Below are positions 1 to 36,945 of a DNA stretch of 64,000 nucleotides, piece after piece; the first letter of the stretch is position 1; every line of letters starts with the position of its first letter. The DNA lies in assembly GCA_013695765.1 (NCBI GenBank), contig JACCZW010000097.1, positions 402 through 64,401 on the forward strand. The letters run 5' to 3'. The notes under the pieces were generated by a model. The model ran no database searches, was not told the origin of the DNA, and saw only the letters and a program-made list of their open reading frames with translations. This stretch comes from Gammaproteobacteria bacterium (GTDB lineage: Bacteria > Pseudomonadota > Gammaproteobacteria > JACCYU01). The translations under genes were made by a program, and so were the position numbers.

Positions 1-1943
1 TGGATGGTGCCGGGCGGTTGCGCAGCGATGGCGCGTCCGGTGGGCGCGCCGCCGCGACCTACCGAACCGCCCCGACCGTGGAAGAACGAGATGGGCAGCC
101 CGCGCTCCTCGCCGACCCGTTTCAGGCGTGACTGCGCCTTGCTGACTTCCCAGTTGGAACACAGAAAGCCGCCATCCTTGTTGGAATCGGAATAGCCGAC
201 CATGACTTCCTGCACGCCGCCCAGCTCGCGCAACAGGGTGCGACGTACCACAGGCACGCCCAGCAAGTCACGGAGAATGGCCGGACCGTTGCGCAGGTCA
301 TCGATGGTTTCGAGCAACGGTATTACCATGATCTGACAGCTTTCGATGCCTTCCGCGTCTGTGAAGAGGCCCGCGTATTTGGCCAACAGATAAACACCCA
401 GAACGTCCGCGGTGGTGCGCGTCATGCTGAGCACAAAACCGTTGAAGGTATCGCGATCCACTTCGTCACGCATCTCGCGAACCATGCGCAACATGCCGAG
501 CGTAGATTCGGACGACTCGGGAAGGCCGAAACTCGGCATCGAATCCAGCGGCCGCACCAGTTCGGTGAGCAGCCATTGTTTCCATTGCTCGGAATCGGTC
601 TTCGGAGGTTCCTTGTCGCCGGTGATCTGCTTCCAGATGTCGCCCAGCGCTTCGTTCGTCTTGGCGGTATTTTCGCGCAGGTCCAGGCTGAAAGTACGGA
701 ATCGGAACGCCTCAACCTGGCGTCGCAGCGGCTTGACGATGTTGCGTGCGATGCCCTCGCTATGCGCGCCAATCAAGCCGCTCTCCAAGGTGCGAAAGTC
801 CTCGATCAACTCGTCAGCGGTGCCGTAACGGTGCTGCGGCGCTACGTGATTGGCGCCGTGCTCATCGGCGCTGGCGGTGCCTTCCAGCTTGCGCAGCATG
901 CAGGTGGTGAACTGACGGAACACCTCGCCGGGGTTGCGCGCAGTGAGCTGTTCGCTCACGCCGCTGACCGCCAGATGCTCGCTGAGCGCGGTCAAGAACT
1001 CTTCGGGTACCTCCAGTGCGTGCGCGGCCAGACTCAGGCGCGGAACCATGCGCTGCAAATCCTTGAGATAACGTCTGATGCAGGCGTGCCGGTACAGCCG
1101 CAGGATGTCGCGCGTGGTGTCGTTGGTGACGAACGGATTGCCATCGCGGTCGCCGCCTATCCAGGAGCCGAACTGAAATATCGGCGGCAGGGTGAAGTGG
1201 TGGTCCGGGAAAGTCTCCGCCAGCACCTCTTCCATGCGGCGCTCGATGCTGGCGATGCCCACGAACAGCGCGTCGTTGAAAAAATGCAGCCCCCATTCCG
1301 CTTCCTGTTGCACGGTGGGTTTTTCCAGCCGAATTTCGCCGGTCAGCCATAACAGATCGATCTCGGTGCGCAGATCGTCGATCAGCGCCTTGCGTTCGCG
1401 CGGGGTCCAGCGTGTCAGTTCAATTTCGCGCAGCAGTAGAAATATGCGCCGGTGGATCTCCAGCACCGTAATGCGTTTGGCTTCGGTGGGGTGCGCCGTG
1501 ATGACCGGACGTATGCGTGCCGATGCCAGCATGGTCTGGATCTGGTCGGCGGTCATGCCGGCTTTAGCGGCTTGCGTGAACACATTGGCGAACGTGCCGG
1601 GCACATGCTCGGGGCCGCGCTCGGTTTCGGTGTGACGCAAACTGCGCATGACCAGATTCTGCTCGGCGATCGACAGCAGCCTGAACCAGACGCCGTGCGC
1701 CTGAAGGGTGCGCAGCAGCAGATTGCGATCACCTTCAGGGATCGACTGCTTTCCCTTTAGCACCGGATCAATCTCCGGGTTGCGGACGCTGATCACGTCG
1801 TGAAACAGCGCCTCCAGCAGCTGGATGATCTGTTCGGTGTAATCTGCGTCGCCCGTACCCAAGGGCGCGCCTGTCATCTGGTTCGGATCTGAGGGCGCTG
1901 CATTGCCGGAGGTTGCTTGGCTGGACTGGCTAGGATTGGCCAT
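1..1943 (-). CDS. ppc: phosphoenolpyruvate carboxylase, N-terminal ~645 codons (C-terminus lies beyond window start)
   Basis: Reverse-strand translation from ATG (complement of 1941-1943) runs without stops to position 1. It contains the PEPC hallmarks VITAHPTEAKR, VMVGYSDSNKDGG and FHGRGGSVGRGGAP. Absent from the ORF track because its stop codon is outside the window. Confidence 0.9.
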   Translation of the reverse strand, partial: MANPSQSSQATSGNAAPSDPNQMTGAPLGTGDADYTEQIIQLLEALFHDVISVRNPEIDPVLKGKQSIPEGDRNLLLRTLQAHGVWFRLLSIAEQNLVMRSLRHTETERGPEHVPGTFANVFTQAAKAGMTADQIQTMLASARIRPVITAHPTEAKRITVLEIHRRIFLLLREIELTRWTPRERKALIDDLRTEIDLLWLTGEIRLEKPTVQQEAEWGLHFFNDALFVGIASIERRMEEVLAETFPDHHFTLPPIFQFGSWIGGDRDGNPFVTNDTTRDILRLYRHACIRRYLKDLQRMVPRLSLAAHALEVPEEFLTALSEHLAVSGVSEQLTARNPGEVFRQFTTCMLRKLEGTASADEHGANHVAPQHRYGTADELIEDFRTLESGLIGAHSEGIARNIVKPLRRQVEAFRFRTFSLDLRENTAKTNEALGDIWKQITGDKEPPKTDSEQWKQWLLTELVRPLDSMPSFGLPESSESTLGMLRMVREMRDEVDRDTFNGFVLSMTRTTADVLGVYLLAKYAGLFTDAEGIESCQIMVIPLLETIDDLRNGPAILRDLLGVPVVRRTLLRELGGVQEVMVGYSDSNKDGGFLCSNWEVSKAQSRLKRVGEERGLPISFFHGRGGSVGRGGAPTGRAIAAQPPGTI

Positions 1944-2169
1944 ATGTTGTGCGCTTAGTGAGGGTCATAAAACCAAATGCCGTTGCAGAAATTTCAGGTG
2001 CATGAAATGGGTAGGTCGGTCGATACGCCCGCAAAGCTTGCGTGTGCTTGTCGAACGGTGTGGCGGCTTATCCACCCTTTATGGCCACATTGCCTGATCA
2101 CCGAATCATTGTGCTGAGGCACTTAAGCTTGAAATTCCACTGGCGTGATGCGCCGGTGACGACGTATAA

Positions 2170-3141
2170 CTAGGCAACGCGATCCGGCGGTTCCCTATCC
2201 GCGAAGAAAGCTTCCAGGTTGCTCAGTACGCGCTCGCCCATGGCGACGCGGGTTTCGGTTGTGGCGCTGCCCAGGTGGGGCAGGGCGACTACGTTTTCCA
2301 TCTTCAGCAGTGCCGCACTGACTTTCGGCTCCTGCTCGAATACATCCAGCCCGGCGCCCGCGATAGTGCCGGACTGCAAGGCTTCGATGAGGGCTTTTTC
2401 GTCTACGACATCCCCGCGTGCGCTGTTGATCAGAAACGCGTGATCCTGCATGAGCTTAAAGCGCTCAGCGTTGAGCAGGTGTTGCGTCGCAGCACCTCCC
2501 GGACAATGAATGGATACGAAGTCCGCCGCGCCAAGCACGTCTTCGACGCTGTCACGGCTCTCTGCGTCCAGCCCTTCAAGGGCTCCCGGTTTAGGCGGAT
2601 AGGGATCGTGGAAAATTATCTTCATGCCAAAGCCGTGGTGCGCGCGCCTGGCCACCGCCTGCGCGATACGACCCATGCCGATCAGCCCCAGCGTTTTGCC
2701 GGTCACCTGAGCGCCCATCATGTGCGTTGGGCGCCAGCCGGTCCAGTGTCCGCCGCGCACGTGCCGCTCGCCTTCGCCGGCGCGGCGCGCGGTCATCAGC
2801 AATAAGGTCATCGCCAGATCCGCGGTCGCGTCGGTCAGTACTTCCGGCGTGTTGGTGACGACCAGTCCGTGTTCCTTGGCCGCGTCGACATCAATGTTGT
2901 TGAAGCCGACGCCGAAGTTGCCGATCATTTTCGCGCGGCGGTTATCCGTGCCCAGCACTTCTGCCGTCATCTTGTCAGTGACGGTAGGACACACCGCGTC
3001 GGCGTTGCGCATGGCGTCCGCGAGCTGATCGGCGGTTAACGCCTCGTCGCTCTCGTTCAAGGTGACGTCGAATTGGCTTTTAAGTTTTTTCTCCACCGCT
3101 TGCGGCCATTTGCGCGTTACGATGACTTTGGGTTTTGCCAT
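2170..3141 (-). CDS. D-isomer-specific 2-hydroxyacid dehydrogenase, probable hydroxypyruvate/glycerate reductase of the serine cycle (hprA-like)
   Basis: 323 aa with NAD-binding GxGxxG (GLIGMGRIAQ) and conserved catalytic Arg/Glu/His region (SARGDVVDEKAL...LDVFEQEP). Family assignment is solid. The specific function is inferred from the adjacent mtkAB/mcl/sga genes. Confidence 0.7.
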   Translation of the reverse strand: MAKPKVIVTRKWPQAVEKKLKSQFDVTLNESDEALTADQLADAMRNADAVCPTVTDKMTAEVLGTDNRRAKMIGNFGVGFNNIDVDAAKEHGLVVTNTPEVLTDATADLAMTLLLMTARRAGEGERHVRGGHWTGWRPTHMMGAQVTGKTLGLIGMGRIAQAVARRAHHGFGMKIIFHDPYPPKPGALEGLDAESRDSVEDVLGAADFVSIHCPGGAATQHLLNAERFKLMQDHAFLINSARGDVVDEKALIEALQSGTIAGAGLDVFEQEPKVSAALLKMENVVALPHLGSATTETRVAMGERVLSNLEAFFADREPPDRVA

Positions 3142-3275
3142 GTTTTTGCTTCCTGTGTGTCATCCGGCCTGGTCACGTCAGAGATGACGTGACCAGGCTT
3201 GGACCTGGAAATCAGCGGGAACAGCTCGCGGCAGAAGGCGCTTCTACATTAAGCCACCCCTATTATGACAACCTA

Positions 3276-4166
3276 TTAGGACACCTTTGACAGCACTTCT
3301 TTCGCGGTAGCGCCGAACTCCGCGGGGCTGGGGACGACTACGATGCCGGCCTCCTTCATAATCTCCACTTTTTCGGCCGCGCTTTCGCCGCTGGACGAAA
3401 TGACCGCGCCAGCGTGGCCCATGCGCCTTCCCTTGGGCGCCGTCAGGCCCGCGACGTAACCCATCACCGGCTTGCTCATGTTCTCCTTAAAGAATTTGGC
3501 CGCGTCGCCCTCCTGCGGCCCGCCGATCTCGCCGATCATCAACACGGCCTTGGTTTCCGGGTCCTCTTCGAACAGCTCGAACACGTCCTGGAAGGAGCAG
3601 CCGTTGATGGGATCGCCGCCAATGCCTACCGCGGTCGATATGCCAATGCCCATCGCCCTCATTTGCTCAGCGGCCTCGTAGCCCAAGGTGCCGGAGCGAC
3701 CGACCACACCGACGTTGCCTTCGATGTAGATATGGCCCGGCATGATGCCCAGCATGGCCTTGCCGGGGCTGATGGTGCCGGCGCAGTTAGGCCCGGTCAG
3801 TATCATGCGATCCTCGTAACGGTAGCGGTACATATAGCGCTTAACCCGGATCATGTCCTGCGTCGGAATACCGTCGGTGATGGCTACGCAGTATTTGATG
3901 CCGCCATCGGCCGCTTCCATGACGGAATCGGCCGCAAATGGCGCCGGTACGAACAGGATGCTCGCCTGCGCGCCGGTTTCTTTCACCGCTTCCTTGACCG
4001 TGTTGAACACGGGCCGGTCCAGATGTTTGGTGCCGCCTTTACCTGGTGTCACGCCGCCCACCACGTTGGTACCGTAATCAATCATCTCCTGGGCGTGGAA
4101 AGTACCGATCTTGCCGGTAAAGCCCTGGATGATGACCGGCGTTTTTTCGTCAATAAGAATTGCCAT
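3276..4166 (-). CDS. mtkB: malate--CoA ligase (malate thiokinase) small subunit, SucD-type CoA-binding subunit
   Basis: 296 aa SucD-like protein (IIQGFTGKIGTFHAQ, GHAGAVISSSGESAAEK phosphohistidine region). Called Mtk rather than Suc because it sits between mtkA-like and hprA-like genes next to malyl-CoA lyase, and resembles Methylobacterium MtkB from memory. Confidence 0.7.
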   Translation of the reverse strand: MAILIDEKTPVIIQGFTGKIGTFHAQEMIDYGTNVVGGVTPGKGGTKHLDRPVFNTVKEAVKETGAQASILFVPAPFAADSVMEAADGGIKYCVAITDGIPTQDMIRVKRYMYRYRYEDRMILTGPNCAGTISPGKAMLGIMPGHIYIEGNVGVVGRSGTLGYEAAEQMRAMGIGISTAVGIGGDPINGCSFQDVFELFEEDPETKAVLMIGEIGGPQEGDAAKFFKENMSKPVMGYVAGLTAPKGRRMGHAGAVISSSGESAAEKVEIMKEAGIVVVPSPAEFGATAKEVLSKVS

Positions 4167-4187
4167 ATTTGTATCTCCGCGCCGGTT

Positions 4188-5372
4188 CTAAGCCTTGCTC
4201 TTTTCCACGGCTTCATTACGGGCCTTGACCGCCTTGTCGGCGGCCTCGGCCAGCGTTTCGGCCATAATAAAAGGGAACTCGCTTTTTTTGAGGATCTCTC
4301 GGCCTTTTTCGACGTTGGTGCCCGCCAGCCGCACGATCAGAGGGATTTTCATGTCAATCTTCTGCACCGCCTGCACCACGCCTTCGGCAATCCAGTCGCA
4401 GCGGTTGATGCCGGCGAAGATGTTGACCAGGAAAACCTTGACCTTTTCGTCCGAGAGCACCAGCCGAAAGGCCTTTGCAACCCGATCCGGCGAGGCGCCA
4501 CCGCCGATGTCCAGAAAGTTTGCTGGACTGCCGCCCGCCTGCATGATCATGTCCATGGTCGCCATCGATAAACCCGCGCCGTTGATCATGCAGCCGATAT
4601 CACCGTCCAGGCCGACATAGCTTAGGCCGCGATCGGCGGCGTTGGTCTCGCGCGGGTCCTCCTGCGACTTGTCGCGCAGCTCCGAAATGTTGGCGCGGCG
4701 GAACAGGGCGTTGTCGTCGAACTGCATCTTGGCGTCCAGCGCCAGCAGGCGGTTATCTTTGGTAACGACCAGTGGATTGATCTCGATCAGGGTGGCGTCG
4801 AGATCGCGCAGCGCCCGATAAGCGCCGGTGAAAGCCGCGCTGGCCTGACGGATCAGCGATGCGGGCAAATCCAGTCCGAATGCCAGTTCACGCGCCTGAA
4901 AGTCGCGCAGACCCACCGCCGGTTCCACCGCGATGCGCATGATGGCCTCGGGTTTGTCTTTGGCGAGATCCTCGATCTCCATCCCGCCCTCGGCGCTCGC
5001 CACTACCACGATGCGTTCGCGGGCGCGATCCATCACCAGGGCGAAATAGATTTCACGGTCTATGTCGGTGCCGGCCTCCACGTAGAGGCGATAAACAACC
5101 TTGCCTTGCGGGCCGGTCTGCTTGGTTACCAAGCGTTTGCCCAGCAGTTCATCCGCGGCGTCCCAGATCTCGCGGTCGTTGGAGCAGACCTTGATGCCGC
5201 CGGCCTTGCCGCGCGCGCCCGAATGGATCTGCGCCTTGACGACCCATTTTTCACCGCCAATTTCCTTGGCGCGGTAGACCGCCTGTTCAGGGCTGTACGC
5301 CAGCCCGCCCGCGGCGATCGGCACGCCGAAGCCCGAGAGAAGTTCTTTTGCTTGATATTCGTGGATATCCAC
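4188..5372 (-). CDS. mtkA: malate--CoA ligase (malate thiokinase) large subunit, SucC-type ATP-grasp subunit
   Basis: 394 aa with the [30 protein letters not shown]-terminus, close to Methylobacterium MtkA ([12 protein letters not shown]..). Located in the serine-cycle cluster. Confidence 0.75.
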
Positions 5373-5489
5373 GGGTATTGCCTCCAGTTTCCAGTGTCGC
5401 GCTGGCCCGCGACCGCGGGCGTTTTTATCGGTTAAGCGTCGCGACGACCTGACTTGCGAAATCGGTCGCCGCGAACCCTTGCCGTTACA

Positions 5490-6437
5490 TTATTTCGATT
5501 TGTCTTTTATGGCCTTGTCGGTACGCACCACGTTTTCCGCCATGCGCGCCGTCGCGGCATCGATCATCCTGCCATCCAGCTGCGCGGCGCCCTTGCCCTG
5601 ACGTGACGCCTCTTCCAGGGCTTCCAGCATTCGCCTGGCCTGCTTTACTTCGTCGTCCGGCGGGGAGAACACATCGTTTGCGAGATCGATCTGGCTGGGA
5701 TGAATCGCCCATTTGCCTTCAATGCCCAAGGCCGCGGCCCGTTTGGCGGCCAGGACGAAGCCGTCCTTATCGTTGAAGTCGCCGAACGGCCCGTCGATGG
5801 GCCGTAACCCGTACGCGCGACAGGCAACCGTCATGCGGGTCAGGGCCGCGTGCCACTGGTCGCCGGGATAGTCGGGGTTGAGGCCGCCGATATTCACGGT
5901 GCGTGCACGGTTACTGGCGGCGTAATCCGCCACGCCGAAATGCATCGCTTCGAGCCGCTTGCTTGACGTGGCGATGGCCTCGACATTGGCCATGCCCAGC
6001 GCGGTCTCGATCAATACCTCGATGCCGATGCGATGTTCACCGAAGTCCATCGCCTGCTCGATCTGGGTGATCAGGCAGTCAATGAGATAAACGTCGCCCG
6101 GTACGCCGACCTTGGGGATGAGAATGGTGTCCAGATTCTTGCCGGCCTGCTCCAAAATATCCACGACATCGCGGTACATGTAATGCGTATCCAGCCCGTT
6201 GATGCGGATGGACATGGTTTTCTTTCTGCCCCGCCAGTCGATGTCGTTCAGCGCTTCGATGATGTTCTTGCGCGCCTTGGTCTTATCGTCCGGTGCTACG
6301 GCGTCTTCGAGATCGAGAAATATAAAGTCCACTTCGCTCTTGGACGATTTCTCGAACATGTTCGTATTGGTGCCGGGCACGGCGAGTTCGCTGCGTTGCA
6401 GTCGGACCTTGCTGGGTTCGTAACGGGTGTGGCTCAT
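5490..6437 (-). CDS. mcl: L-malyl-CoA/beta-methylmalyl-CoA lyase (HpcH/HpaI-CitE family)
   Basis: 315 aa; near-colinear with Methylobacterium MclA as recalled (RSELAVPG, IFLDLEDAVAPDDK, NGLDTHYMYRDVVDI, GKWAIHPSQIDLAN). Confidence 0.85.
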   Translation of the reverse strand: MSHTRYEPSKVRLQRSELAVPGTNTNMFEKSSKSEVDFIFLDLEDAVAPDDKTKARKNIIEALNDIDWRGRKKTMSIRINGLDTHYMYRDVVDILEQAGKNLDTILIPKVGVPGDVYLIDCLITQIEQAMDFGEHRIGIEVLIETALGMANVEAIATSSKRLEAMHFGVADYAASNRARTVNIGGLNPDYPGDQWHAALTRMTVACRAYGLRPIDGPFGDFNDKDGFVLAAKRAAALGIEGKWAIHPSQIDLANDVFSPPDDEVKQARRMLEALEEASRQGKGAAQLDGRMIDAATARMAENVVRTDKAIKDKSK

Positions 6438-6451
6438 GCGGTCGCCCTCTC

Positions 6452-7696
6452 TTAAGCGGTTTGCTTCATGTCGGAGCCGGATTTCATTGCCCGGGCCTGC
6501 CCGGCAGTGCTTTTCTTGTCCGCCGCCGGCGCGTTCTTGCGGTAGTACTCGATGGCGGCTGCCAAGCCGCTACCGGCTTCGATCTCGATGCCGACATCCA
6601 GCATGGCCATTTCGGTGGCCGCGAGCGCGGCACAGCAACTGACTTCGTTGAGATCGCCCAGATGACCGATGCGAAACAGCTTGCCCGCGACATCGGTGAG
6701 TCCGGCACCCAGCGCCGTGTTGTACTTTCTGTAGGCAATGTCGACGACGTCCGCACCATTGATGCCTTCGGGGACCATAATCGCGCTGACCGTATCGGAG
6801 TACCATTTGGGCTGCCTGGCGCACAGCTTGAGACCCCAGGCCTGGATCGCCTGACGCACGCCTTCGCCAAGGCGATGATGGCGCGCGTAGACGTTCTCGA
6901 GGCCTTCCTCGAACAGCAGGTCCAACGATGCCCGCAGGCCGCGCAACATGGGCAGCGACGGCGTGTAAGGAAAGAGACCGTTCGCGTTGGTTTTGATGTG
7001 ATCTTCGAGATCCAGAAAGCAGCGCGGTAGCTTGGCCGTTTTGCGGGCTTCCAACGCCTTCTGGCTGGCGCACACGATGGCAAGTCCGGCCGGCAACATA
7101 AAGCCTTTCTGCGACCCGGCGATGGCCATGTCCACGCCCCACTCGTCCATGCGAAAATCGATGCTGGCAATGGAGCTGACGCCGTCGACGAACAGCATCG
7201 CCGGGTGTTTGGTGGCGTCCAAGGACTTGCGTACGGCTGCGATCTCGCTGGTCACGCCGGTGGCGGTCTCGTTGTGGACGATCATGACGGCTTTAATCGC
7301 GTGGTTCTTGTCCTCGGCGAGCTTTTTCTCGATGTCGGGCACAGGCGCGCCCTCGCCCCAAGGCACTTTGAGGAAATCGACGTCGAGCTTCAATCGTTCT
7401 GCCATGTTTATCCACAGGTGGCTGAACTGGCCGAAGCGCGCGGACAGGACTTTGTCGCCCGGTGACAAAGTGTTGGTCAGGGCAACCTCCCAGCCAGCTG
7501 TGCCGGTCGCGGGAAAGATAAATGACTGCCCCTTGGTGGTCTTGAACACCTTGTTCAGGTCCGCGAACAGCGGCTTGGTGAGCTCGTGCAGATCGGACGC
7601 GCGATGATCTTCCATCGGCACGTGCATCGCGGAGAGAACCGAGTGCGGAACGTTGGTCGGTCCGGGGACATATAAGTGGTTGTGGCCGTAACGCAT
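6452..7696 (-). CDS. sga: serine--glyoxylate aminotransferase (class V PLP aminotransferase)
   Basis: 414 aa; strongly similar to Methylobacterium SgaA as recalled (GRNHLFVPGPTN.., KAVMVVHNETATGVTS, FRIGHLGDLNE). Confidence 0.85.
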   Translation of the reverse strand: MRYGHNHLYVPGPTNVPHSVLSAMHVPMEDHRASDLHELTKPLFADLNKVFKTTKGQSFIFPATGTAGWEVALTNTLSPGDKVLSARFGQFSHLWINMAERLKLDVDFLKVPWGEGAPVPDIEKKLAEDKNHAIKAVMIVHNETATGVTSEIAAVRKSLDATKHPAMLFVDGVSSIASIDFRMDEWGVDMAIAGSQKGFMLPAGLAIVCASQKALEARKTAKLPRCFLDLEDHIKTNANGLFPYTPSLPMLRGLRASLDLLFEEGLENVYARHHRLGEGVRQAIQAWGLKLCARQPKWYSDTVSAIMVPEGINGADVVDIAYRKYNTALGAGLTDVAGKLFRIGHLGDLNEVSCCAALAATEMAMLDVGIEIEAGSGLAAAIEYYRKNAPAADKKSTAGQARAMKSGSDMKQTA

Positions 7697-7849
7697 GATC
7701 TATTCCTTATCGCTATATATCTGTTAATCAGGTGACCCGTAAGGTCGATGTGTCACAAAAGCATTCGATGGGCATCTGAGGCGGCAAGCGCGGTAGAGCG
7801 AGTACTCCAGATTGTAATTGCCGGCCGGCGACCGGCGCGGTGTGAACCT

Positions 7850-8773
7850 TTAAGCGGCTGGCTGTTTGTCCGGGTGCAGGTAAACCAGACTCTTGCCCAG
7901 CTTGCCGCCATAGTTGCCGGCCGAAATCATGTTCAAGCCCGGCGTGTCTGCCGCAGCCTTGATCGCAGCCTGCGTGGCATCGATGATCGCCTGCAGATCC
8001 TTGCCGTTCATGATGATCTCCATCACCGACTTGACACCGTCCGGCAGACCCGCTTCCACATCCGGATGATCCTGCAAGGTCGGGCAGAATTTGGTGAACG
8101 TGCTGGCGATGGCGAACTTGTACTTGCTGCCGGCGGTCGAGCCCGAGCCGGCGACGCCGCCCGGAAACGGCATGATGACGCCGGGAACATCATGCACGGC
8201 TTGCACCCCGCGCTCGGCCCCTGCTAGCGCCGAATCCACGCTATCGCCAAACAGCCATAGATTGCCGCCCATCAGCCCGTCCGTGTAACCGAGCCTGCGA
8301 TCGATTATGAATTCCCCGCCGAGGATCGGGACTACCCATACCTTGCGGCCGTAACGCTCTTCGCGCGTTTGAAAGCCGTTGCCGAAATACGCGACCTTGC
8401 GACCCATGTGGTAGTAGGTGTCGGAGTCGACCAGATTGAAGCAGGCTGCGGTGGGCGCGGTCAGCACGTTTTGCGTGATGCGCGCAAGCGCGGCTTTTTC
8501 CAGCGCCTCGACCCGGTCTTTGCGAAAGCGCGGCAGGTGCATCTGCACCACGGCACCGGGGCGGCCATCGGGCGTTTGAAAAGACTCATCACCGCCGGGG
8601 CCAACGTAGCGATCGAGACCGGCTTCGCAATCGCACATGATAGTGCTGGAACCGTGCCCGGTCGCCGCGTTGACCGCGTGCTCCAGCCAGGTGCGATCGC
8701 GCGCGGTGATCAGCATTTCGACGTAGATGCTCTTGAATGCCTCGGCATAGGTATCATCGATTCTCGCGGCCAA
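7850..8773 (-). CDS. Ftr-family formyltransferase (formylmethanofuran:H4MPT formyltransferase / FhcD-like)
   Basis: 307 aa. N-terminus IDDTYAEAF..MLITA and central TPDGRPGAVVQ...VLTAPT match Ftr/FhcD family members as recalled from memory. No fhcABC partners are in the window. Confidence 0.65.
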   Translation of the reverse strand: MAARIDDTYAEAFKSIYVEMLITARDRTWLEHAVNAATGHGSSTIMCDCEAGLDRYVGPGGDESFQTPDGRPGAVVQMHLPRFRKDRVEALEKAALARITQNVLTAPTAACFNLVDSDTYYHMGRKVAYFGNGFQTREERYGRKVWVVPILGGEFIIDRRLGYTDGLMGGNLWLFGDSVDSALAGAERGVQAVHDVPGVIMPFPGGVAGSGSTAGSKYKFAIASTFTKFCPTLQDHPDVEAGLPDGVKSVMEIIMNGKDLQAIIDATQAAIKAAADTPGLNMISAGNYGGKLGKSLVYLHPDKQPAA

Positions 8774-8775
8774 AA

Positions 8776-9405
8776 TCAGTCTCTCCCTTTGCCTTCGTAA
8801 ATGTCTTTCTCGGTTATGACCTTGTCCATGAAAATGTCATGGGGACCGACCAGAATTTCAGGGAACATCTGCGACTCGAAACAAAGTGCTATCAGCGGCG
8901 CGTCCGGGCGCGCACTCTCCAGCAGTCGATCGTAATAGCCTTGGCCGTTGCCCATGCGCCCGCCACGACGATCGAAACCGACACCCGGCACCATCACTAG
9001 ATCCAGCGCCTCGGGCTCGACCTCCTTGCCTTTCTCGCCCCAACGATCCTTGGGCGGCTCCAGGATTTTCCATTTGCCGACCACGAGTTCGTCCATGCTC
9101 TCCAGGAGCCACAAACCCAGCTTGTTTTCACCTTCCTCGTCCACTGTGCAATAAGGGACGACAATCTTTTTGTCGCTGTTGACGGCATCGCCGATCACGT
9201 GGCGCGTGCGCACCTCGGAGCGCACGTCCAGATACCACATCACGGTTTGGGCCGCGGCGTACTCGGGCAGGTTTACGAATTTATCGACGATGGTTTTGGA
9301 CAGCTCGTCCTTGTTTTCCTGCTCGTTGCGCGCGTCGTACGCCTCGCGGCGCATCTTTCCCTTGCGCTCCATCAACGCGTCCAGTTCTTGCTGGCTCAGA
9401 CTCAT
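8776..9405 (-). CDS. 5-formyltetrahydrofolate cyclo-ligase family protein (MTHFS/YgfA-like)
   Basis: GRMGNGQGYYDR motif and overall MTHFS-like layout. Start placed at the internal ATG (9405) preceded by GGAG, rather than the ORF-track start at 9492. Confidence 0.75.
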   Translation of the reverse strand: MSLSQQELDALMERKGKMRREAYDARNEQENKDELSKTIVDKFVNLPEYAAAQTVMWYLDVRSEVRTRHVIGDAVNSDKKIVVPYCTVDEEGENKLGLWLLESMDELVVGKWKILEPPKDRWGEKGKEVEPEALDLVMVPGVGFDRRGGRMGNGQGYYDRLLESARPDAPLIALCFESQMFPEILVGPHDIFMDKVITEKDIYEGKGRD

Positions 9406-9527
9406 GTGGCGGACTCCTCGATTAGGATGCGATGTTCCGCTGGTGATTAATGGGAATATAAGCTGGAACATGCAGCAAAATTCAAACCACAATGCAGCAA
9501 ACGAGCCAGTTTCTTTTCTAATGGGGG

Positions 9528-9780
9528 CGTTCGCGGATGTTTAAGCGGACACGATGAAGGTCAAAACCCATCCGTCGGGTGCGGATATCTAACCACAATG
9601 CGAGCATGGAAAGCCGCGGTTGCGGATTATGCCGAGCCGATGCGTTTGATCTCGACACACACGCCGCAAGGCGAGCGCCGGAATCCCGGGATGTTATGTA
9701 GAACCGCACGTGACAGATGTTTCAACCGCGAGACGGTTGCCTGTCGCATATCGACTCCGCGGAGCAGCAACGCTCCAAGG
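9528..9780 (+). ncRNA. ssrS: probable 6S RNA (SsrS)
   Basis: The plus strand reads GCGGAUAUCUAACCACAAUGCGAGCAUGGAAAGCCGCGGUUGCGGAUUAUGCCGAGCCGAUGCG...CUCGACACACACGCC. This resembles E. coli 6S RNA (GCCGAUAUUUCAUACCACAAGAAUGUGG..CCGCGGUUGGUGAGCAUGCUCGG...GCGACGACACAUUCACC) as recalled from memory. A 5' GAUGUUUAAGCGG matches E. coli GAUGUUCGCAAGCGG. A GGAGCagcaacGCTCC hairpin (9761-9776) and a T-run (9808-9814) follow. It sits beside the ygfA-type 5-FCL gene. Ends are approximate. Confidence 0.5.
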
Positions 9781-9950
9781 GCTGGTTTCCTGCCTGAGTT
9801 CGGGCTATTTTTTTGAGCGAAGATGACCACCGTGGTCGTCGTCCTCATCGCGGACGGCTGCCGCACTTGTCGGCTAATCTGAGGCCGCGCCTGTTATGCA
9901 CTTTGGGGAAGTCGCGCAAAGCAACGCCTGCGTGTAAGTGTATCGAGCCT

Positions 9951-10523
9951 TTACTTGTCCTTGCTTTTTTTTTCTTCTTCGCCATCTTCTTCTTTCTCGG
10001 GATCAACGTCCGCTGAGTCCTCCCGGGTTTCCTCGGCGTGACGGGTCAGCCACTGGAATAGACCCAGGCCGATTAACGCGAACACCGCCACCGCCAGCAG
10101 CGCGGCGGGATAGAACAGCAGGTAAGGTTCGTCCTTGTTCTGAAACACGATGACCAGCGCCTCCAGGCTCACCGCGATGATGATGATGGTGAAGAACATG
10201 GTCAGCGAGCGGCGCGCTTCGGAAATTCTGGCCAGTTCCCGCTCCTTGACCACCTGTTCTTCGAGCAGAAACTTGGCGACATCGAAGACCGCGAAGGCGA
10301 TGATAATGAGACCGACGCTGTCCAGCAGTTGGGCGAGAAACGGCTTGCCCGCCCATACCTCGCCGGTCATGGCCCAGATCGCCGAGCCGACCATGGCGAG
10401 CGCCAGCAATTGCAGTGCGAAGGCCGCGACGATGTACAGCGCCTTCGATCCCAGATTGAAAATCCGGAGCTCCCACGACAGGGGTTGTTCGTCGTCTTTA
10501 TCCCGCTTTTCGCTCATGGTCAT
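9951..10523 (-). CDS. hypothetical polytopic membrane protein (about 4 TM, acidic Lys/Glu/Asp-rich C-terminus)
   Basis: 190 aa ORF starting 6 nt downstream of the AI-2E gene stop. Hydrophobic segments; no recognisable family. Confidence 0.5.
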   Translation of the reverse strand: MTMSEKRDKDDEQPLSWELRIFNLGSKALYIVAAFALQLLALAMVGSAIWAMTGEVWAGKPFLAQLLDSVGLIIIAFAVFDVAKFLLEEQVVKERELARISEARRSLTMFFTIIIIAVSLEALVIVFQNKDEPYLLFYPAALLAVAVFALIGLGLFQWLTRHAEETREDSADVDPEKEEDGEEEKKSKDK

Positions 10524-10529
10524 CTCAGT

Positions 10530-12443
10530 TCATGTGTTGCGATCAATGACCGCGACGCGTTCGTTCATGCGTTGCCGCGCCCACTTGACACCCGCCGCCA
10601 GGTTCGCCAACACCGCGTCGGCGCCGGCCTCGTTAAGCCTTGGGGCTACGCGGGCGGCATACACGGGATTATTCCATACGCCCACCGCAACCCTGGCTTT
10701 CGGAAATTGCTGCTTTAGCCGTTTGCAGAGATACCGCGTGTGCGCAAGCGCCTTCGGCGGCAGGGCGGAGACGCACACCACAGGCTGCTCGCTCTCACCA
10801 ACGCGCTTCACCATCTCGCTCGCCAGACTCTTGATGGACAGGTGCTGAGCACCGATGCCCTGCACCTTCAGCACCTGCGCGAACATGCGCGCCGTCAGTT
10901 CATCGGCCAGATCGCGCGACGGCAGACACATCAGTTCGAAAGCCTGATGATGCGGCTCGATGGCCCTGCCGTTCGCGGCGATGCTGTCCTGCGTGCCGAG
11001 GGCATCGACGATCTCACTCGCGCTCTCGATTATGGATTGCTCCAACTCCGGCTCCAGGTGCCCGTCGTGACGATCGCGCTCCGCCAGTGCGAGGGCCGGA
11101 ATGATGACCTGATCGTAGACGCTCATGAGACCGTCGCCGGAGTGCTCCCGTGCGAGTTGCATGGCGCCCTCGTGATCGCCCGCCAGCAGGCGCTGATAAA
11201 AGCGTTCGGTAGCCGACAAGGCGGGTTCCTTGCCCAGCAGAATGGTAAAAAACTCGAACTGCGGCAGATGCCGGCCTGCGACCACCAGGCACACGGTGAG
11301 CGGAATGGCCAGCAGCAGCCCCACCCCGCCCCAAAGGGAACTCCAGAAGATTACCGCCAGCAGCACCGCCACGGGCGAGAGACCGGTGCTCGCGCCGTAC
11401 AGCCACGGTTCCATAACCATATTGGTGAATGATTCCAGGACGATAAACAGCGCCACCACCGCCGCCGGCAAGATCCAGCCATCGAATACCGCCAGTGACA
11501 ACAGGATGGGCATGGATGCCGCCAGCCAGGGGCCGACGTAAGGGATGAAACGCAGCAACATTCCCAGCAGCCCCCACAGCAGCGCGCCGGGCAAGCCTAT
11601 GATTGCCAGGCCAATCGCAATCGGCACGCCGTAACACGTGTTGATCAGCAGTTGTGTCCGCAGATAGCGGCCAATACGGTCGCCCGCGTCGTTCAGGGCA
11701 CGGGTGGTCACGTCCAGGCGGTCGCGACTCATGAGCCGGATCAGGCGGTCGCGCAAATCCTCGCGCTGCAACAGGAAGAAAATGACCAGCACCACAGCCA
11801 GCCCCAGCCGCGCCAACGGGATCAACGCCGGAGAAACATAGTCCCTGAGAAGTTCGAAGGTCGACGGGGACTCTTCCAGCATCTCGACCAGGACTGGCGC
11901 CCGCGACTGATCGGTTAATGGCTCGTCGCCTTGAAGTCCGCGCGCCCCTTGTGGCTCCGCGACGTCCGGTTCTGCCGCGGATGGTTTCTTTCTAATGTCC
12001 TCCCTAATCGCGAAGAAAGTCTCCGCCGCCCGCTCGAAGACACCACCCTCGCCGCCCTGCAGGCTCAAGAATCGTTGCGTAATATTATCCTGGTATTTGG
12101 GCAGAGATTCCGCAAGGCTGACGACCTGGTTGGACACCATCAGGCCGACTAACCCAAGGATCGAAAAAGCAAAGATGACAGTCGCAATGACGCTGGGTAC
12201 CGGCGGCAGGCGCCAGCGCTCCAGGCGATCGGCCGCCGGCGCGAGCACGAAGCTCAGCAGCACCGCCAGCGCGATCGGGATCAACACGTCCTGCCCCAGA
12301 TAAAGCCCGGCGATGACCATCAGCCCCAGACCGAACCGTATCAGCGGTAGCGCGGCATCGGGCTGTGACTGTTTTGGCATGGCGCGCGGCGGATGCGGGT
12401 TCAGCGACGAAGCTGGAACGCCAGACCGCAATGGCGCCAGCAA
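10530..12443 (-). CDS. AI-2E family transporter (PerM/UPF0118-like) fused to a C-terminal B12-binding-like (CarH/MerR-type) two-domain module
   Basis: 637 aa. Residues about 20-400 form a typical AI-2E permease core. The C-terminal 230 aa align from memory with the CarH B12-binding helical bundle (ERFYQRLLAGDHEGAMQL..YDQVIIPALALAERD) plus a Rossmann-like half ending VAVGVWNN. The canonical His of ExHxxG is replaced (SRDLADEL). Confidence 0.7.
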   Translation of the reverse strand: MLAPLRSGVPASSLNPHPPRAMPKQSQPDAALPLIRFGLGLMVIAGLYLGQDVLIPIALAVLLSFVLAPAADRLERWRLPPVPSVIATVIFAFSILGLVGLMVSNQVVSLAESLPKYQDNITQRFLSLQGGEGGVFERAAETFFAIREDIRKKPSAAEPDVAEPQGARGLQGDEPLTDQSRAPVLVEMLEESPSTFELLRDYVSPALIPLARLGLAVVLVIFFLLQREDLRDRLIRLMSRDRLDVTTRALNDAGDRIGRYLRTQLLINTCYGVPIAIGLAIIGLPGALLWGLLGMLLRFIPYVGPWLAASMPILLSLAVFDGWILPAAVVALFIVLESFTNMVMEPWLYGASTGLSPVAVLLAVIFWSSLWGGVGLLLAIPLTVCLVVAGRHLPQFEFFTILLGKEPALSATERFYQRLLAGDHEGAMQLAREHSGDGLMSVYDQVIIPALALAERDRHDGHLEPELEQSIIESASEIVDALGTQDSIAANGRAIEPHHQAFELMCLPSRDLADELTARMFAQVLKVQGIGAQHLSIKSLASEMVKRVGESEQPVVCVSALPPKALAHTRYLCKRLKQQFPKARVAVGVWNNPVYAARVAPRLNEAGADAVLANLAAGVKWARQRMNERVAVIDRNT

Positions 12444-12560: not shown

Positions 12561-14267
12561 TCAGCCTTCATCGGTGATCGCACCGCGCGAGGCGGAGCTG
12601 ACCTGACGGGCATACTTCGCCAGCACCCCGCGCGAGTATCGCGCCTTAGGTGGTTTCCAGGACGCCAGACGCGCGGCGATTTCCTCTTTCGTAAGCTCCA
12701 GATTGATCTGGCGTTTGTCAGCGTCGATGGTGATCGCATCGCCGTTTTTCACGATCGCGAGAGGACCGCCTTCCGCGGCTTCGGGCGTGATATGGCCGAC
12801 CACGAACCCGTGACTGCCGCCCGAGAAGCGTCCATCGGTAATGAGCGCCACATCTTTGCCCAAACCCTTGCCCATCACCGCAGAGGTCGGCGCCAGCATC
12901 TCGCGCATGCCAGGCCCGCCTCTGGGTCCTTCGTAACGGATGACCAGCACATCGCCCTTGACTACCGTGCCATCGAGTATCCGCTTAAGGGCTTCTTCTT
13001 CCGAGCCGAACACGCGCGCCTTGCCGGTAAACTGCACGCCCTCCTTGCCGGAGATCTTGGCGACCGCACCTTCGGGAGCCAGGTTGCCGTACATAATGAC
13101 CAGATGCCCGGTTTTTTTGATCGGGTCATCGAAGGCGCGCACAATCTCCTGTTTTTTGGGATAAGGCTTTACCTTTTTTAGATTCTGCGCAAGTGTCTTG
13201 CCGGTGACGGTAAGGCATTCGCCATGCAGCAGACCGCGGACAAGCAAATCTTTCATCAACGGCTGGATGCCGCCGATCGCGATCAGCTCCGACATCATGT
13301 AACGTCCGCTGGGCCGCAAATCCGCCAGCACCGGCACCTTTTTGCCGATGCGGGTGAATTCGTCGATCGAGAGCTTGACATCGGCAGCAAACGCCATCGC
13401 CAGCAGGTGCAGCACCGCGTTGGTGGAGCCGCCCAGCGCGGTGATGACCACGATGGCGTTCCTGAACGCCTTTTTGGTCATGATGTCGCGTGGGCGAATA
13501 TTCTTTTGAATTAACGCCATGACCGCGCCGCCAGCCTCGAAGCTGTCGCGAGCCTTTTCCTCCGATAACGCGCGCTGCGCTGAGCTGCCGGGCAGACTCA
13601 TGCCCAGCGCCTCGATCGCCGAGGCCATGGTGTTGGCCGTAAACATGCCGCCGCACGCGCCGGCGCCGGGGATGGCGCAACTTTCCACCGCGTGCAACTG
13701 TCTGGCCGTCATGCCGCCGCCGGCCTGCGCGCCGACAGCCTCGAACACCGATACGATGTCCAGGTTCCTGTCGTCCAGACGGCCAGGGCTAATGGTGCCG
13801 CCGTACACGAACACGGCGGGTCGGTTCAGCCGCGCCAGCGCCATGAGACAGCCCGGCATGTTCTTGTCGCAGCCGCCGATTGCCACCACGCCATCGAAAC
13901 CCTCGCAGGCGGTCACGGTTTCTATCGAATCCGCGATCACTTCGCGCGACACCAGCGAATATTTCATGCCCTCGGTGCCCATTGAAATGCCATCGGAAAT
14001 GGTGATGGTGTTGAAGATGATTGCTTTCGCTTTAGCCGCATCGGCGCCCGCGGCGGCCTCGCGCGCCAGCTTGTCGATGTGCATGTTGCAGGGCGTGACC
14101 ATGCTCCAGGTCGAGGCGATGCCGATCTGCGGCTTGCGGAAATCCTTGTCCTCGAAGCCGACTGCGCGCAGCATGGCGCGGCTGGGCGCGCGCTCGATTC
14201 CATCGACCATTTGCGCGGAAAACGGCCGTGGATTTTTGGTGCTTTTGGAGGCGGTGCGTTTGGCCAT
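12561..14267 (-). CDS. ilvD: dihydroxy-acid dehydratase
   Basis: 568 aa with ILVD/EDD signatures ([28 protein letters not shown]). Confidence 0.9.
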
Positions 14268-14281
14268 TCAAGATCGCCCTG

Positions 14282-15283
14282 TTAATGATATTGCCTGATG
14301 ATATGCGGATGCGCCGCATCGCCGCCGTTCAACCGCGGGCAGTGACTCGGTGACGGCCCGGCAGCGGTGGCAGCCCGCACTTCTTCCAGCGTCGCCCGAA
14401 AATCGGGGTTGCTATCCGAATCCACGGCGACGGCGCGTCTGGCCGCCGTCAGTGCCTGCCTGTCGCAACCAAGCTCGGACAGGCTGATGGCGAGATTGTT
14501 ATGCGCGGCGGCCGAATCCGGCGCCAGGGCGGTAGCAATCGCGAATGCACGCGCCGCGCCGCCCGCATCGTCCAGCGCGTAACGCGCATTACCCAGACCC
14601 ATGCGTATTAAAGCGTTGTGCGGCCAGTGACCGGCCGCCGCCCGATAGGCTTCGCGCGCCGCCCGCGGATGTCCGGTCTCCTCCAGCGCGGCCGCCGCCT
14701 CGAGGTAGCGCAGCGCATTATTGCCGTGCGGCATATGGTCCGGGGGCAACGGCGCAAACGCCCAGTAATCGCCGCGCGCCCAGGTGCGCTCGAAGACGCT
14801 TAAGGCCAGCCGGTAATTTCGACTTGCACCGGAATGCAGAATGAGTTCGCCGGTGTTCAGATCGTAGCCAATGGCGACCGCATAATGCCACCGCAGGTAC
14901 CAGTTGACGCCAAGGTTCTGCAACACCACCACGGGATGTTGCGCCGCAATCTCCGCGAGCAGATGTTGAAGATCGGGCGCCAGCACATAGGCGAGCAGCC
15001 CCTGCCCGCGGGTGGCGGCCAGCATTTCTGCCTGCAGGCTGCCCTGGAGTCCGGGGACGTACACGGCCCGCGCCAGCGCCGACTGCGTAACCTCGACCCC
15101 GTAGTATTTCATGGTCATGGCCAAGGCCGCCGGGCCACAGTAAAACGCCTGCTGCGCAAAGAAAGGGACATCCTCGATGAGAGTTTTTGCGGGCAGGGTA
15201 TCCGGCAGGGATTGCATCAGGCCACGGGTTTGCGAAGGTGCGCAGCCATGTACGAGCAGTGTCACCATCGCGCACAGGAGCAT
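14282..15283 (-). CDS. PA2778-family periplasmic cysteine peptidase lipoprotein with C-terminal TPR repeats
   Basis: Lipobox LLVHGC. N-terminal papain/C39-like domain (FYCGPAALAMTMKYYG ... WHYAVAIGYD). TPR-like C-terminus. Confidence 0.6.
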   Translation of the reverse strand: MLLCAMVTLLVHGCAPSQTRGLMQSLPDTLPAKTLIEDVPFFAQQAFYCGPAALAMTMKYYGVEVTQSALARAVYVPGLQGSLQAEMLAATRGQGLLAYVLAPDLQHLLAEIAAQHPVVVLQNLGVNWYLRWHYAVAIGYDLNTGELILHSGASRNYRLALSVFERTWARGDYWAFAPLPPDHMPHGNNALRYLEAAAALEETGHPRAAREAYRAAAGHWPHNALIRMGLGNARYALDDAGGAARAFAIATALAPDSAAAHNNLAISLSELGCDRQALTAARRAVAVDSDSNPDFRATLEEVRAATAAGPSPSHCPRLNGGDAAHPHIIRQYH

Positions 15284-22971: not shown

Positions 22972-23035
22972 GTTTATTGGCTTTGCGCCCTTTGCGCCCT
23001 TTGCGCCCTTTGCGCCTCTGCGGGTCTTTGCGTAG
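22972..23035. repeat. tandem 9-bp repeat CTTTGCGCC x4 plus 2-3 degenerate copies in the glnE-ilvE intergenic region
   Basis: Direct reading: ggCTTTGCGCCCTTTGCGCCCTTTGCGCCCTTTGCGCCtctgcgggtctttgcg. Confidence 0.85.
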
Positions 23036-23094
23036 AGTACTAAAGCCCAGTGAATCACGCGCAATAAATGTTTAATGTTTAAGGAGTAGGCACG

Positions 23095-24018
23095 ATGTCC
23101 ATGGCCGATCGTGACGGTCTGATCTGGTTCGACGGCGAAATGGTGCCTTGGCGAGAAGCCAAAGTGCACGTGCTGACGCATACCCTGCATTACGGTATGG
23201 GGGTTTTCGAGGGCGTGCGTGCGTATGAAACCCGTCGTGGCACGGCGATCTTCCGGCTTGCCGATCACACCAGGCGGCTGTTCAATTCTGCGCATATCTT
23301 GGGGATGGCCATGCCGTTCGACAAAGACGTGATCAACGCTGCGCAACGGGCGGTGGTGCGCAAGAACCAGCTCAAATCGGCCTACATTCGGCCCATGTGT
23401 TTCTACGGCGCGGAAGGCATGGGGCTGCACGCGCAAGGGTTGCGCGTGCACTGCATGATCGCGGCCTGGGAGTGGGGCTCGTATCTGGGCAAGGACAATC
23501 TCGAAAAAGGCTTGCGCATCAAAACCTCGTCGCTCACGCGCCATCACGTCAACATCACCATGTGCAAGGCCAAGGCCAACGGCAACTACATGAACTCCAT
23601 GCTCGCCCTTCAAGAGGCCACGCGCGACGGCTACGACGAGGCGCTGCTGCTGGACATCGAGGGTTACGTGGCCGAAGGCAGCGGCGAGAATATCTTCATC
23701 GTGAGCGACGGCGTGCTGTACACACCGGATCTTACCTCTGCACTGGACGGCATGACGCGCCGCACGATTATCACTCTGGCGGGGCAACTGGACATCCCGG
23801 TGCGCGAAAAGCGCATCTCGCGCGACGAGGTGTACATCGCCGACGAGGCGTTTTTCACCGGCACCGCCGCCGAAGTGGCGCCCATCCGCGAGCTGGACAA
23901 CCGTGCCATCGGCACCGGCCGGCGTGGCCCCATGACGGAACGCCTGCAGACCATGTTCTTCGATCTCGTCGTCGGCCGCCGCGACGACCATCAGGACTGG
24001 CTCACGCCGGTCGCGTGA
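23095..24018 (+). CDS. ilvE: branched-chain amino acid aminotransferase
   Basis: 307 aa class IV aminotransferase (GMGVFEGVRAY, EAFFTGTAAEV). GGAG RBS upstream. Confidence 0.9.
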   Translation: MSMADRDGLIWFDGEMVPWREAKVHVLTHTLHYGMGVFEGVRAYETRRGTAIFRLADHTRRLFNSAHILGMAMPFDKDVINAAQRAVVRKNQLKSAYIRPMCFYGAEGMGLHAQGLRVHCMIAAWEWGSYLGKDNLEKGLRIKTSSLTRHHVNITMCKAKANGNYMNSMLALQEATRDGYDEALLLDIEGYVAEGSGENIFIVSDGVLYTPDLTSALDGMTRRTIITLAGQLDIPVREKRISRDEVYIADEAFFTGTAAEVAPIRELDNRAIGTGRRGPMTERLQTMFFDLVVGRRDDHQDWLTPVA

Positions 24019-24032
24019 GCTTAAAGAACGCC

Positions 24033-24254
24033 ATGCCCAACCCGCACAGTTCGGACGCGCAGGATAAGTTCACAACGCCCAACGACCGGCGCAGCTATAC
24101 CATCGCGCGCGCGGACCTGCCGCTGCACTGCCCGCTGCCGGGCATGAGCCTGTGGGATTCGCACCCATTGGTTTATATCCCCATCGAAGACAGCAAAAAG
24201 GGGCGCATGCGCTGCCCTTATTGCAGTACCGAATACGTGCTGGAGCCCGAATAG
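24033..24254 (+). CDS. small zinc-finger (zf-CHCC, NDUFS6-like) protein
   Basis: 73 aa with HCPLPGMSLWDSHP...CPYCSTEY, the CHCC zinc-finger pattern. Confidence 0.6.
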   Translation: MPNPHSSDAQDKFTTPNDRRSYTIARADLPLHCPLPGMSLWDSHPLVYIPIEDSKKGRMRCPYCSTEYVLEPE

Positions 24255-24346
24255 CCCGAACGGGTTGGCACTTTCATGCGCTCCGTCACTCGAGCGCCGT
24301 GCCGCTAAGGGCGCGCGTTCATCAAGTGCGCCCGTAGAACAGATAT

Positions 24347-25732: not shown

Positions 25733-25771
25733 GTGAGAGTTGGGCTGACCAACTTCAGGAAGGGATTCAGC

Positions 25772-25975
25772 ATGTATAACTTTGAACATACCTGCTGGAT
25801 TACGCCAACCTGTATGAATGATCTGCGTCGCAGATCCGGTCTGAAGCTAGTCTGGAATGTCATGGTCATAAAGCCGAACTCTTTCAAATATTACATGATG
25901 AAGCTATTGCCGTTTACGAAATCGTGGATAGAAGGGTATACAAAAGAGTACATCTACATACTTAAGAGTGAGTGA
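25772..25975 (+). CDS. hypothetical small protein in an AT-rich islet
   Basis: 67 aa from ATG preceded by AGGAAGGGA. Local GC is far below the flanks. No family recognised. Confidence 0.3.
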   Translation: MYNFEHTCWITPTCMNDLRRRSGLKLVWNVMVIKPNSFKYYMMKLLPFTKSWIEGYTKEYIYILKSE

Positions 25976-26012
25976 CGGGCGCCCCAGCGCGCATCTGTCG
26001 ACCTAGCCGGGC

Positions 26013-27122: not shown

Positions 27123-27162
27123 GTCGCATAATCCAACCCGTCAACGAAACAGCGCGGAACGG

Positions 27163-27186
27163 CCACGCCCGGCGCGGGATTTTTCG
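27163..27186 (+). terminator. possible intrinsic terminator after the GT4 gene
   Basis: GCCCGGCGCGGG stem followed by ATTTTTCG. Confidence 0.4.
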
Positions 27187-28751: not shown

Positions 28752-28756
28752 AACGC

Positions 28757-33254: not shown

Positions 33255-33256
33255 GC

Positions 33257-36925: not shown

Positions 36926-36945
36926 TGAAAATTGCTCGTGAATAA

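Follow-up and report, generated by a model that had tools for sequence, protein, structure and literature searches.

A conserved MTHFS-Ftr gene pair heads a serine-cycle operon in Gammaproteobacteria and suggests a possible two-step route for formyl units into the folate pool

The 64,000-nucleotide stretch examined here (the window; contig JACCZW010000097.1 of assembly GCA_013695765.1, from a Gammaproteobacteria bacterium) encodes a 5-formyltetrahydrofolate cyclo-ligase of the MTHFS family and, directly after it, a formyltransferase of the Ftr family, and the two genes stand at the head of a block of serine-cycle genes. MTHFS and the stand-alone Ftr form a conserved module: of the 89 loci that we compared, 82 have MTHFS directly upstream of Ftr and in the same orientation. 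We propose, as a tentative reading to which we give slightly less than an even chance, that Ftr makes an N5-formyl pterin, probably 5-formyl-tetrahydrofolate (5-formyl-THF) from formyl-methanofuran, and that MTHFS would then use ATP to convert it to methenyl-THF for MtdA or FolD and for serine synthesis. Each protein belongs to a known family; what appears undescribed is that they are conserved as a pair, together with the route that this pairing implies. A full-text literature search returned no description of the pair or the route, with the reservation that the 2004/2005 planctomycete work of Chistoserdova and Kalyuzhnaya might hold an earlier mention.

The MTHFS and Ftr genes

The pair consists of the following two genes:

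8776-9405, minus strand: MTHFS-family 5-formyltetrahydrofolate cyclo-ligase, 209 amino acids, PF01812, first cistron of the pair
7850-8773, minus strand: Ftr-family formylmethanofuran:tetrahydropterin N-formyltransferase of the planctomycete/archaeal-like type, 307 amino acids, Pfam FTR and FTR_C, second cistron

Both open reading frames (ORFs) lie where an earlier note on this DNA had placed them; the order in which they are transcribed is the reverse of the one it gave (Ftr, then MTHFS). The MTHFS gene starts with an ATG at 9405, with a GAGGAG ribosome-binding site before it. The Ftr gene starts with a TTG at 8773, and its ribosome-binding site, GGGAGAG, is found 7 nt upstream. Since only 2 nt separate the TGA stop of MTHFS (8778-8776) from the Ftr start, and since the Ftr ribosome-binding site lies inside the 3' end of the MTHFS gene, the two genes are arranged for translational coupling.

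The assignment of the second protein to the Ftr family, which the earlier note had made from the sequence alone, was borne out by both Pfam models, FTR (3.4e-43, 147.4 bits) and FTR_C (3.9e-49, 167 bits), and the protein also exceeded the cutoffs of TIGR03119 fhcD (310.6 bits, cutoff 292.6) and of NF002554 (328.4 bits, cutoff 297). It is full-length, and residues 4-300 of its 307 align with the solved structures 1m5h, 1m5s and 1ftr. An identical copy was found in GCA_020063725.1, on a 4.7-kb contig. Glu252 of the window protein ('VMEIIMNG') is aligned to the catalytic Glu245 of Methanopyrus kandleri Ftr ('VYEIVING') and is invariant in 78 members of the clade; the M. kandleri residue, which corresponds to Glu252 of FhcD, has been proposed as an oxyanion stabiliser (PMC6926001).

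Two known systems offer themselves for comparison. With archaeal Ftr (EC 2.3.1.101; PDB 1FTR/2FHJ, 1M5H and 1M5S) the window protein shares the two-lobe family, the catalytic Glu and an end-to-end alignment at 233-248 bits (A. fulgidus 1m5h 247.6, M. barkeri 239 and M. kandleri 233 bits), and in both the gene stands outside any fwd/fhc cluster; the window gene differs in being bacterial, in following an MTHFS gene and in its link to genes of folate metabolism and the serine cycle. With FhcD of the formyltransferase/hydrolase complex (fhcCDAB; M. extorquens 6S6Y) it shares the family and a passing score to the TIGR03119 fhcD model. However, it scores only 164 bits against M. extorquens FhcD (6s6y_D), compared with 248 for archaeal Ftr, and its identity to plasmid-borne proteobacterial FhcD, including that of Azoarcus, is about 39%, against 62-77% to the planctomycete copies. 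Judged by these scores and identities, the window Ftr has its nearer relatives among the Ftr proteins of archaea and planctomycetes, and the FhcD encoded in proteobacterial fhc clusters is more distant. Moreover, fhcA, fhcB or fhcC neighbours were seen in none of the 89 Ftr loci, unlike the fhcB-A-D-C-fae arrangement of Azoarcus pAZKH.

The first protein matches PF01812 (1.5e-38, 133.1 bits, cutoff 27) and passes the TIGR02727 equivalog model with 132.6 bits (cutoff 84.9); its relatives in the PDB are 1ydm, 1sou, 2jcb and 3hxt. K15 and R19 (K-x3-R), together with the GxGxGYYDR motif (here G-N-G-Q-G-Y-Y-D-R), are invariant in 78 paired homologues. We take the N-terminal K-x3-R and the C-terminal GxGxGYYD(R) to be the nucleotide and substrate motifs seen in MTHFS structures. 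In these respects the protein resembles canonical MTHFS/YgfA (EC 6.3.3.2, 5-formyl-THF salvage), from which it differs in belonging to a subfamily co-inherited with Ftr. This subfamily is tight, with 42-100% mutual pairwise identity (mean 61%), whereas ordinary MTHFS proteins are just 25-39% identical to its members. Against NF007661, the model for the E. coli YgfA type, the window protein scored 47.8 bits, far below the cutoff of 343, which places it, by sequence, outside that type. In the ssrS-ygfA unit a 6S RNA gene lies directly 5' of the cyclo-ligase; the window locus has none there, and no 6S RNA was found at gathering score anywhere in the 64-kb window. The earlier remark that a ygfA-type gene had been uncoupled from its 6S RNA carries little weight, given that the protein is not of the E. 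coli YgfA type.

Conservation of the pair

The 89 loci include the window; 80 loci came from a search for close Ftr relatives in which each species was represented by one genome, and further loci from exact-protein look-ups. The gap between the two genes was at most 7 nt, or the genes overlapped, in about 47 loci. The pair spans three phyla, with loci from Gammaproteobacteria, Planctomycetota and Acidobacteriota, and its carriers comprise gammaproteobacterial metagenome-assembled genomes, Thiohalorhabdus methylotrophus, Ca. Oxydemutator, which is a sponge symbiont (PMC11685487), many Planctomycetota (Pirellulales, Planctomycetaceae and Gemmataceae) and Acidobacteriota of the Vicinamibacterales. 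Pairwise identities of the MTHFS proteins co-vary with those of the Ftr proteins (r = 0.69, Mantel p = 0.001), so the two have been inherited or transferred as a unit. The survey of ftr-MTHFS adjacency was in this sense strongly positive, and the pair is not peculiar to this one cluster but widespread.

Most copies of the pair are in Planctomycetota, where it stands alone: clustering of the neighbouring ORFs revealed nothing else conserved around it. Sequence inspection, the only basis for naming these neighbours, suggested housekeeping genes of thiolase-, ferrochelatase-, MoxR-ATPase- and NADH-dehydrogenase-like types. No MTHFS-Ftr fusion protein was present among the 120 best matches of each protein.

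Pairing with MTHFS was not seen for FhcD of the fhc-cluster type. No MTHFS is annotated in the 40-kb region of Azoarcus pAZKH that holds its fhc genes and, when plasmid and chromid sequences were considered, none of the 60 best MTHFS matches (68 further MTHFS records lie beyond these 60) was on any of the 35 records carrying fhcD.

Gene neighbourhoods of the pair

Downstream of the pair in the window, and co-oriented with it as the earlier note had described, are six serine-cycle genes:

6452-7696, minus strand: sga, serine-glyoxylate aminotransferase-like class-V aminotransferase (PF00266; the nearest NCBIfam model, BhcA, gives 608 bits, under its cutoff of 650)
5490-6437, minus strand: mcl, malyl-CoA lyase-like protein of the HpcH/HpaI family (PF03328, 4.6e-37)
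4188-5372, minus strand: mtkA, malate-CoA ligase beta subunit (NF010647, 689 bits, cutoff 604)
3276-4166, minus strand: mtkB, malate/succinate-CoA ligase alpha subunit (CoA_binding and Ligase_CoA domains; NF004230, 424.6 bits)
2170-3141, minus strand: hprA-like D-2-hydroxyacid dehydrogenase, hydroxypyruvate/glyoxylate reductase-like (PF02826 and PF00389; glyoxylate reductase model 316 bits, below cutoff)
1-1943, minus strand: ppc, phosphoenolpyruvate carboxylase, truncated at the window edge to its N-terminal two thirds (PEPcase, 1.1e-148, profile positions 49-635 of 919)

Only mtkA passed an equivalog cutoff, and the other assignments are at the family level, backed by the conserved gene order. 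The GC content of the operon block (0.58-0.59) is not anomalous within the range of the window (0.56-0.65), and the operon occupies a conserved chromosomal site, in the order glnE-ABC transporter-ilvD-operon, that also occurs in a lineage whose genomes are about 2 Mb in size. In the closest relatives, whose Ftr is 91% identical, ppc is followed by an MtdA orthologue (362 bits to M. extorquens MtdA, 1LU9); by analogy with this gene order, the mtdA of the window organism would sit just past the left edge of the window.

Classical alphaproteobacterial serine-cycle clusters (sga-hprA-mtdA-fch and mtkAB-ppc-mcl) share with this operon sga, the hprA-like gene, mtkAB, mcl and ppc and, in the relatives, the MtdA orthologue. 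The gammaproteobacterial genes differ in forming a single co-oriented block, which lacks fch and ftfL and is headed by the MTHFS-Ftr pair, with or without FolD. The earlier note had the pair standing in place of mtdA/fch; this holds for fch (and ftfL), which are missing from the cluster, but not for MtdA, which closes the operon in the relatives. Domains of FTHFS (ftfL), FTCD_C (fch) and Fwd/Fhc were likewise not found in the Pfam tables of the precomputed neighbourhoods.

The gammaproteobacterial pair never stands alone. The order seen in the window, MTHFS-Ftr-sga-mcl-mtkAB-hprA-ppc, ends with the mtdA-like gene in the relatives. FolD directly follows Ftr in eight gammaproteobacterial loci: in three it is inserted between Ftr and the serine-cycle operon (L010, L011 and L015), in three there is a bare MTHFS-Ftr-FolD triplet (L003 from T. 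methylotrophus, L014, and L016 from Ca. Oxydemutator), and in two (L012 and L017) the contigs end too soon to show the genes past FolD. A 4.68-Mb contig (L088) carries the order sga-hprA-MTHFS-Ftr, and in two Vicinamibacterales loci sga and hprA adjoin the pair on the opposite strand. The tie to folate-level enzymes thus recurs in several independent gene arrangements.

Searches with FhcA, FhcB, FhcC and Fae of Azoarcus pAZKH (tblastn) gave no match in the window or within 10 kb of the pair in the other 88 loci, so the pair is not part of a locally split fhc cluster, and the observation in the earlier note that Ftr occurs without fhcABC is confirmed for the 64-kb window. This absence raises another explanation, namely that Ftr is methanofuran-independent and, in lineages without methanofuran (MFR) and tetrahydromethanopterin (H4MPT), takes the formyl group from some other N-formyl donor (e.g., an N-formyl amino compound) to N5 of THF, with MTHFS completing its entry into the folate pool. 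Besides the absence of fhcABC and fae around all 89 loci, the small genomes (about 2 Mb) of several carriers and the self-contained triplet of the pair with FolD in non-serine-cycle Gammaproteobacteria are in keeping with it. We nevertheless think it quite improbable, since the match to archaeal Ftr covers almost the entire protein and the catalytic Glu has been kept, since no alternative donor is suggested by the neighbouring genes, and since the carriers would have to lack MFR genes.

Several observations were made in passing at these loci. Near the pair and sga/hprA of L088 (13135-18969) are two luciferase-like genes (Mer-family fold), a gene with an F420_oxidored domain and the genes for electron-transfer flavoprotein alpha and beta; these neighbours may hint at F420-linked metabolism, or their presence may be coincidence. 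In L002 (GCA_975322995.1) mtkA is split into two ORFs of 274 and 118 amino acids (13384-14567) and is intact in the near-identical L007, so the split is probably a frameshift or an assembly error. TMED127/Methylaequorales was considered as a relevant lineage and rejected, being alphaproteobacterial and unrelated. In the window, a transporter of the AI-2E family that is extended far at its C terminus, in which extension a B12-binding domain was matched weakly and under the cutoff, and a 190-amino-acid ORF without a Pfam match lie on the minus strand between ilvD and the operon (9951-12443); both are missing from the otherwise syntenic glnE-ABC-ilvD-operon region of L004 and L089.

Transcription signals

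Two noncoding regions flank the pair:

9406-9950, minus strand: intergenic region upstream of MTHFS, with one sigma-70-like site at 9655-9626
7697-7849, minus strand: spacer of 153 nt between Ftr and sga, a possible internal promoter region

The sigma-70-like site was the only match in positions 1900-10600, where 3.0 would be expected by chance, and is therefore weak evidence for a promoter. No Rfam family, including 6S RNA and the THF and glycine riboswitches, was matched at E <= 1 in positions 7650-10000, which cover the 550-nt leader and the Ftr-sga spacer. A pattern scan, which constitutes weak evidence, found no minus-strand terminator-like hairpin between Ftr and sga. The spacer is poorly conserved except for a TCGACC/TTGACC...TATA-like stretch (-35/-10-like) that is also present in L002 (10925-11063), and this shared stretch may serve as a promoter within the operon or as a binding site for a regulator ahead of sga.

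A proposed route from formyl-methanofuran to the folate pool

The textbook account of serine-cycle methylotrophy has the H4MPT and folate pathways branch at free formate, and in the classical alphaproteobacterial methylotrophs FtfL and Fch carry formate into folate, with MtdA completing the conversion to methylene-THF. The sole chemistry common to the Ftr and MTHFS families is the N5-formyl tetrahydropterin (EC 2.3.1.101 and EC 6.3.3.2). MTHFS converts 5-formyl-THF irreversibly to 5,10-methenyl-THF in an ATP-dependent reaction, and 5-formyl-THF is a thermodynamic sink, the most stable of the formyl-folates.

In the route that we propose, Ftr would move the formyl group from formyl-methanofuran or formyl-methylofuran to N5 of a tetrahydropterin, most likely THF, and MTHFS would cyclise the resulting 5-formyl-THF to 5,10-methenyl-THF at the expense of one ATP. 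Methenyl-THF would then be reduced to methylene-THF, either by MtdA, the last gene of the operon in the relatives, or by FolD, the next gene in other lineages, and methylene-THF would enter the serine cycle encoded downstream. Formyl units of the methanofuran/H4MPT pool would in this way reach the folate pool with no passage through free formate, and the route would stand in for the Fhc hydrolase, FtfL and Fch at an equal cost of one ATP. The hydrolysis of formyl-MFR yields -22.9 kJ/mol (PMC6926001). Given this activated donor and the stability of 5-formyl-THF as a product, the transfer to N5 of THF is energetically plausible and should be favourable, and the same stability would explain why the MTHFS step needs ATP.

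The proposal builds on what the sequences show: both proteins belong to their families and have kept their catalytic motifs, the genes are ordered and coupled as described, and the pair is conserved and found repeatedly beside genes of THF metabolism and the serine cycle. We infer from these observations which pterin and which formyl donor are used, in which direction the flux runs, and that sga is transcribed together with the pair. A two-step route from formyl to methenyl had already been suggested in the earlier note; conservation of the pair and its adjacency to FolD, MtdA, sga and hprA are consistent with the two steps, while the substrates and the donor are the part supplied by inference.

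The choice of THF as the pterin follows from a comparison with another possibility, that MTHFS acts on N5-formyl-H4MPT as an ATP-driven substitute or booster of methenyl-H4MPT cyclohydrolase (Mch), giving methenyl-H4MPT for reduction by MtdA. N5-formyl-H4MPT is the known product of Ftr, the MtdA orthologues, going by the names of their PDB entries, take H4MPT as well as THF derivatives, and the distance of the tight paired subfamily from ordinary MTHFS would allow for a different substrate. However, Mch needs no ATP, and from known thermodynamics the two enzymes together would be expected to run a futile cycle. FolD, the direct neighbour in eight loci, is THF-specific, the serine cycle needs methylene-THF, and the protein passes the MTHFS equivalog model. 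The futile cycling against Mch and the link to FolD favour THF, and we consider cyclisation of the H4MPT derivative to be distinctly unlikely.

The main rival to the proposed route assigns the two proteins conventional and separate roles. Ftr would be the FhcD/Ftr of H4MPT-linked formaldehyde oxidation, with fhcABC, mch and fae scattered elsewhere in the genome, and MTHFS would repair 5-formyl-THF, a dead-end inhibitor of serine hydroxymethyltransferase (SHMT) that arises in a side reaction of SHMT or from a promiscuous Ftr or Mch; the genes would be neighbours because both are needed at high one-carbon (C1) flux. In support of this explanation, both proteins score as standard members of their families, a serine-cycle organism has a very high SHMT flux, at which 5-formyl-THF salvage, the textbook function of MTHFS, would be useful, and the Ftr-sga spacer may hold its own promoter. 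The Ftr clade is also common to Planctomycetota, which have been reported to encode H4MPT/MF-linked reactions (PMC5020050). Yet separate roles leave unexplained the coupled pairing in 82 of 89 loci, including planctomycetes without serine-cycle genes nearby, and do not account for why MTHFS tracks Ftr and not glyA or mch. The FhcD of fhc clusters has no such MTHFS neighbour, either in the 40 kb of Azoarcus pAZKH or among the best 60 plasmid MTHFS matches, and the MTHFS-Ftr-FolD triplet points to consecutive steps. On balance, we regard separate roles as rather unlikely.

Several points weigh against the proposed transfer of formyl units to THF. No Ftr or FhcD is known to accept THF, and the characterised members use H4MPT. 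Seven planctomycete loci have Ftr but no MTHFS within 10 kb. The loci with FolD already possess a cyclohydrolase route to methenyl-THF, and methanofuran and H4MPT synthesis, fhcABC, mch, ftfL and fch may be encoded elsewhere in the genome. As a promoter may lie between Ftr and sga, the pair is a putative member of the operon. Finally, given its identity to the planctomycete copies, the window Ftr may be an ordinary H4MPT enzyme of the kind found in planctomycetes, which are reported to have H4MPT/methanofuran-linked C1 genes (PMC5020050).

The broadest form of the proposal is that the MTHFS-Ftr pair constitutes a two-enzyme shunt, a formyl-methanofuran:THF N5-formyltransferase followed by an ATP-driven cyclisation, that takes the place of Fhc hydrolase, FtfL and Fch in those Gammaproteobacteria that run the serine cycle, and that gives the H4MPT-linked genes of planctomycetes an anabolic role in supplying folate C1 units from formaldehyde. 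We put this forward as possible but somewhat doubtful. If it is true, Ftr-MTHFS would connect the H4MPT and folate cofactor systems a second time, in this case without formate, and 5-formyl-THF, usually seen as a dead-end by-product, would become a pathway intermediate. The H4MPT-type genes of Planctomycetota, a puzzle since 2004, would gain a function that can be tested, and the metabolism of uncultured C1 users among the Gammaproteobacteria and Acidobacteriota could be reconstructed better. For engineering, the pair would offer a compact part of two genes through which formyl groups enter folate metabolism.

Other features of the window

A Pfam survey of the remainder of the window revealed no further C1 genes and only housekeeping functions (ilvD, glnE, ABC transporter, lipopolysaccharide (LPS) core, thiC, rho, purD, purH and accC). 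A thiamine pyrophosphate (TPP) riboswitch (RF00059, 66.8 bits) at 36843-36935 on the plus strand lies directly upstream of thiC (36946-38901), an ordinary arrangement. An LPS core/O-antigen cluster at approximately 24300-34600 encodes a Wzy_C ligase, a GT4 glycosyltransferase, an HldE-like protein with PfkB kinase and cytidylyltransferase domains, two GT9 heptosyltransferases, a Kdo/WaaP kinase and a Kdo transferase. Sizeable ORFs without a Pfam match were located at 41545-44063 and 38986-39630 on the plus strand and at 45459-46049, 60723-61529 and 22972-24069 on the minus strand, the last of which has a GAKGAKGAK repeat at its end.

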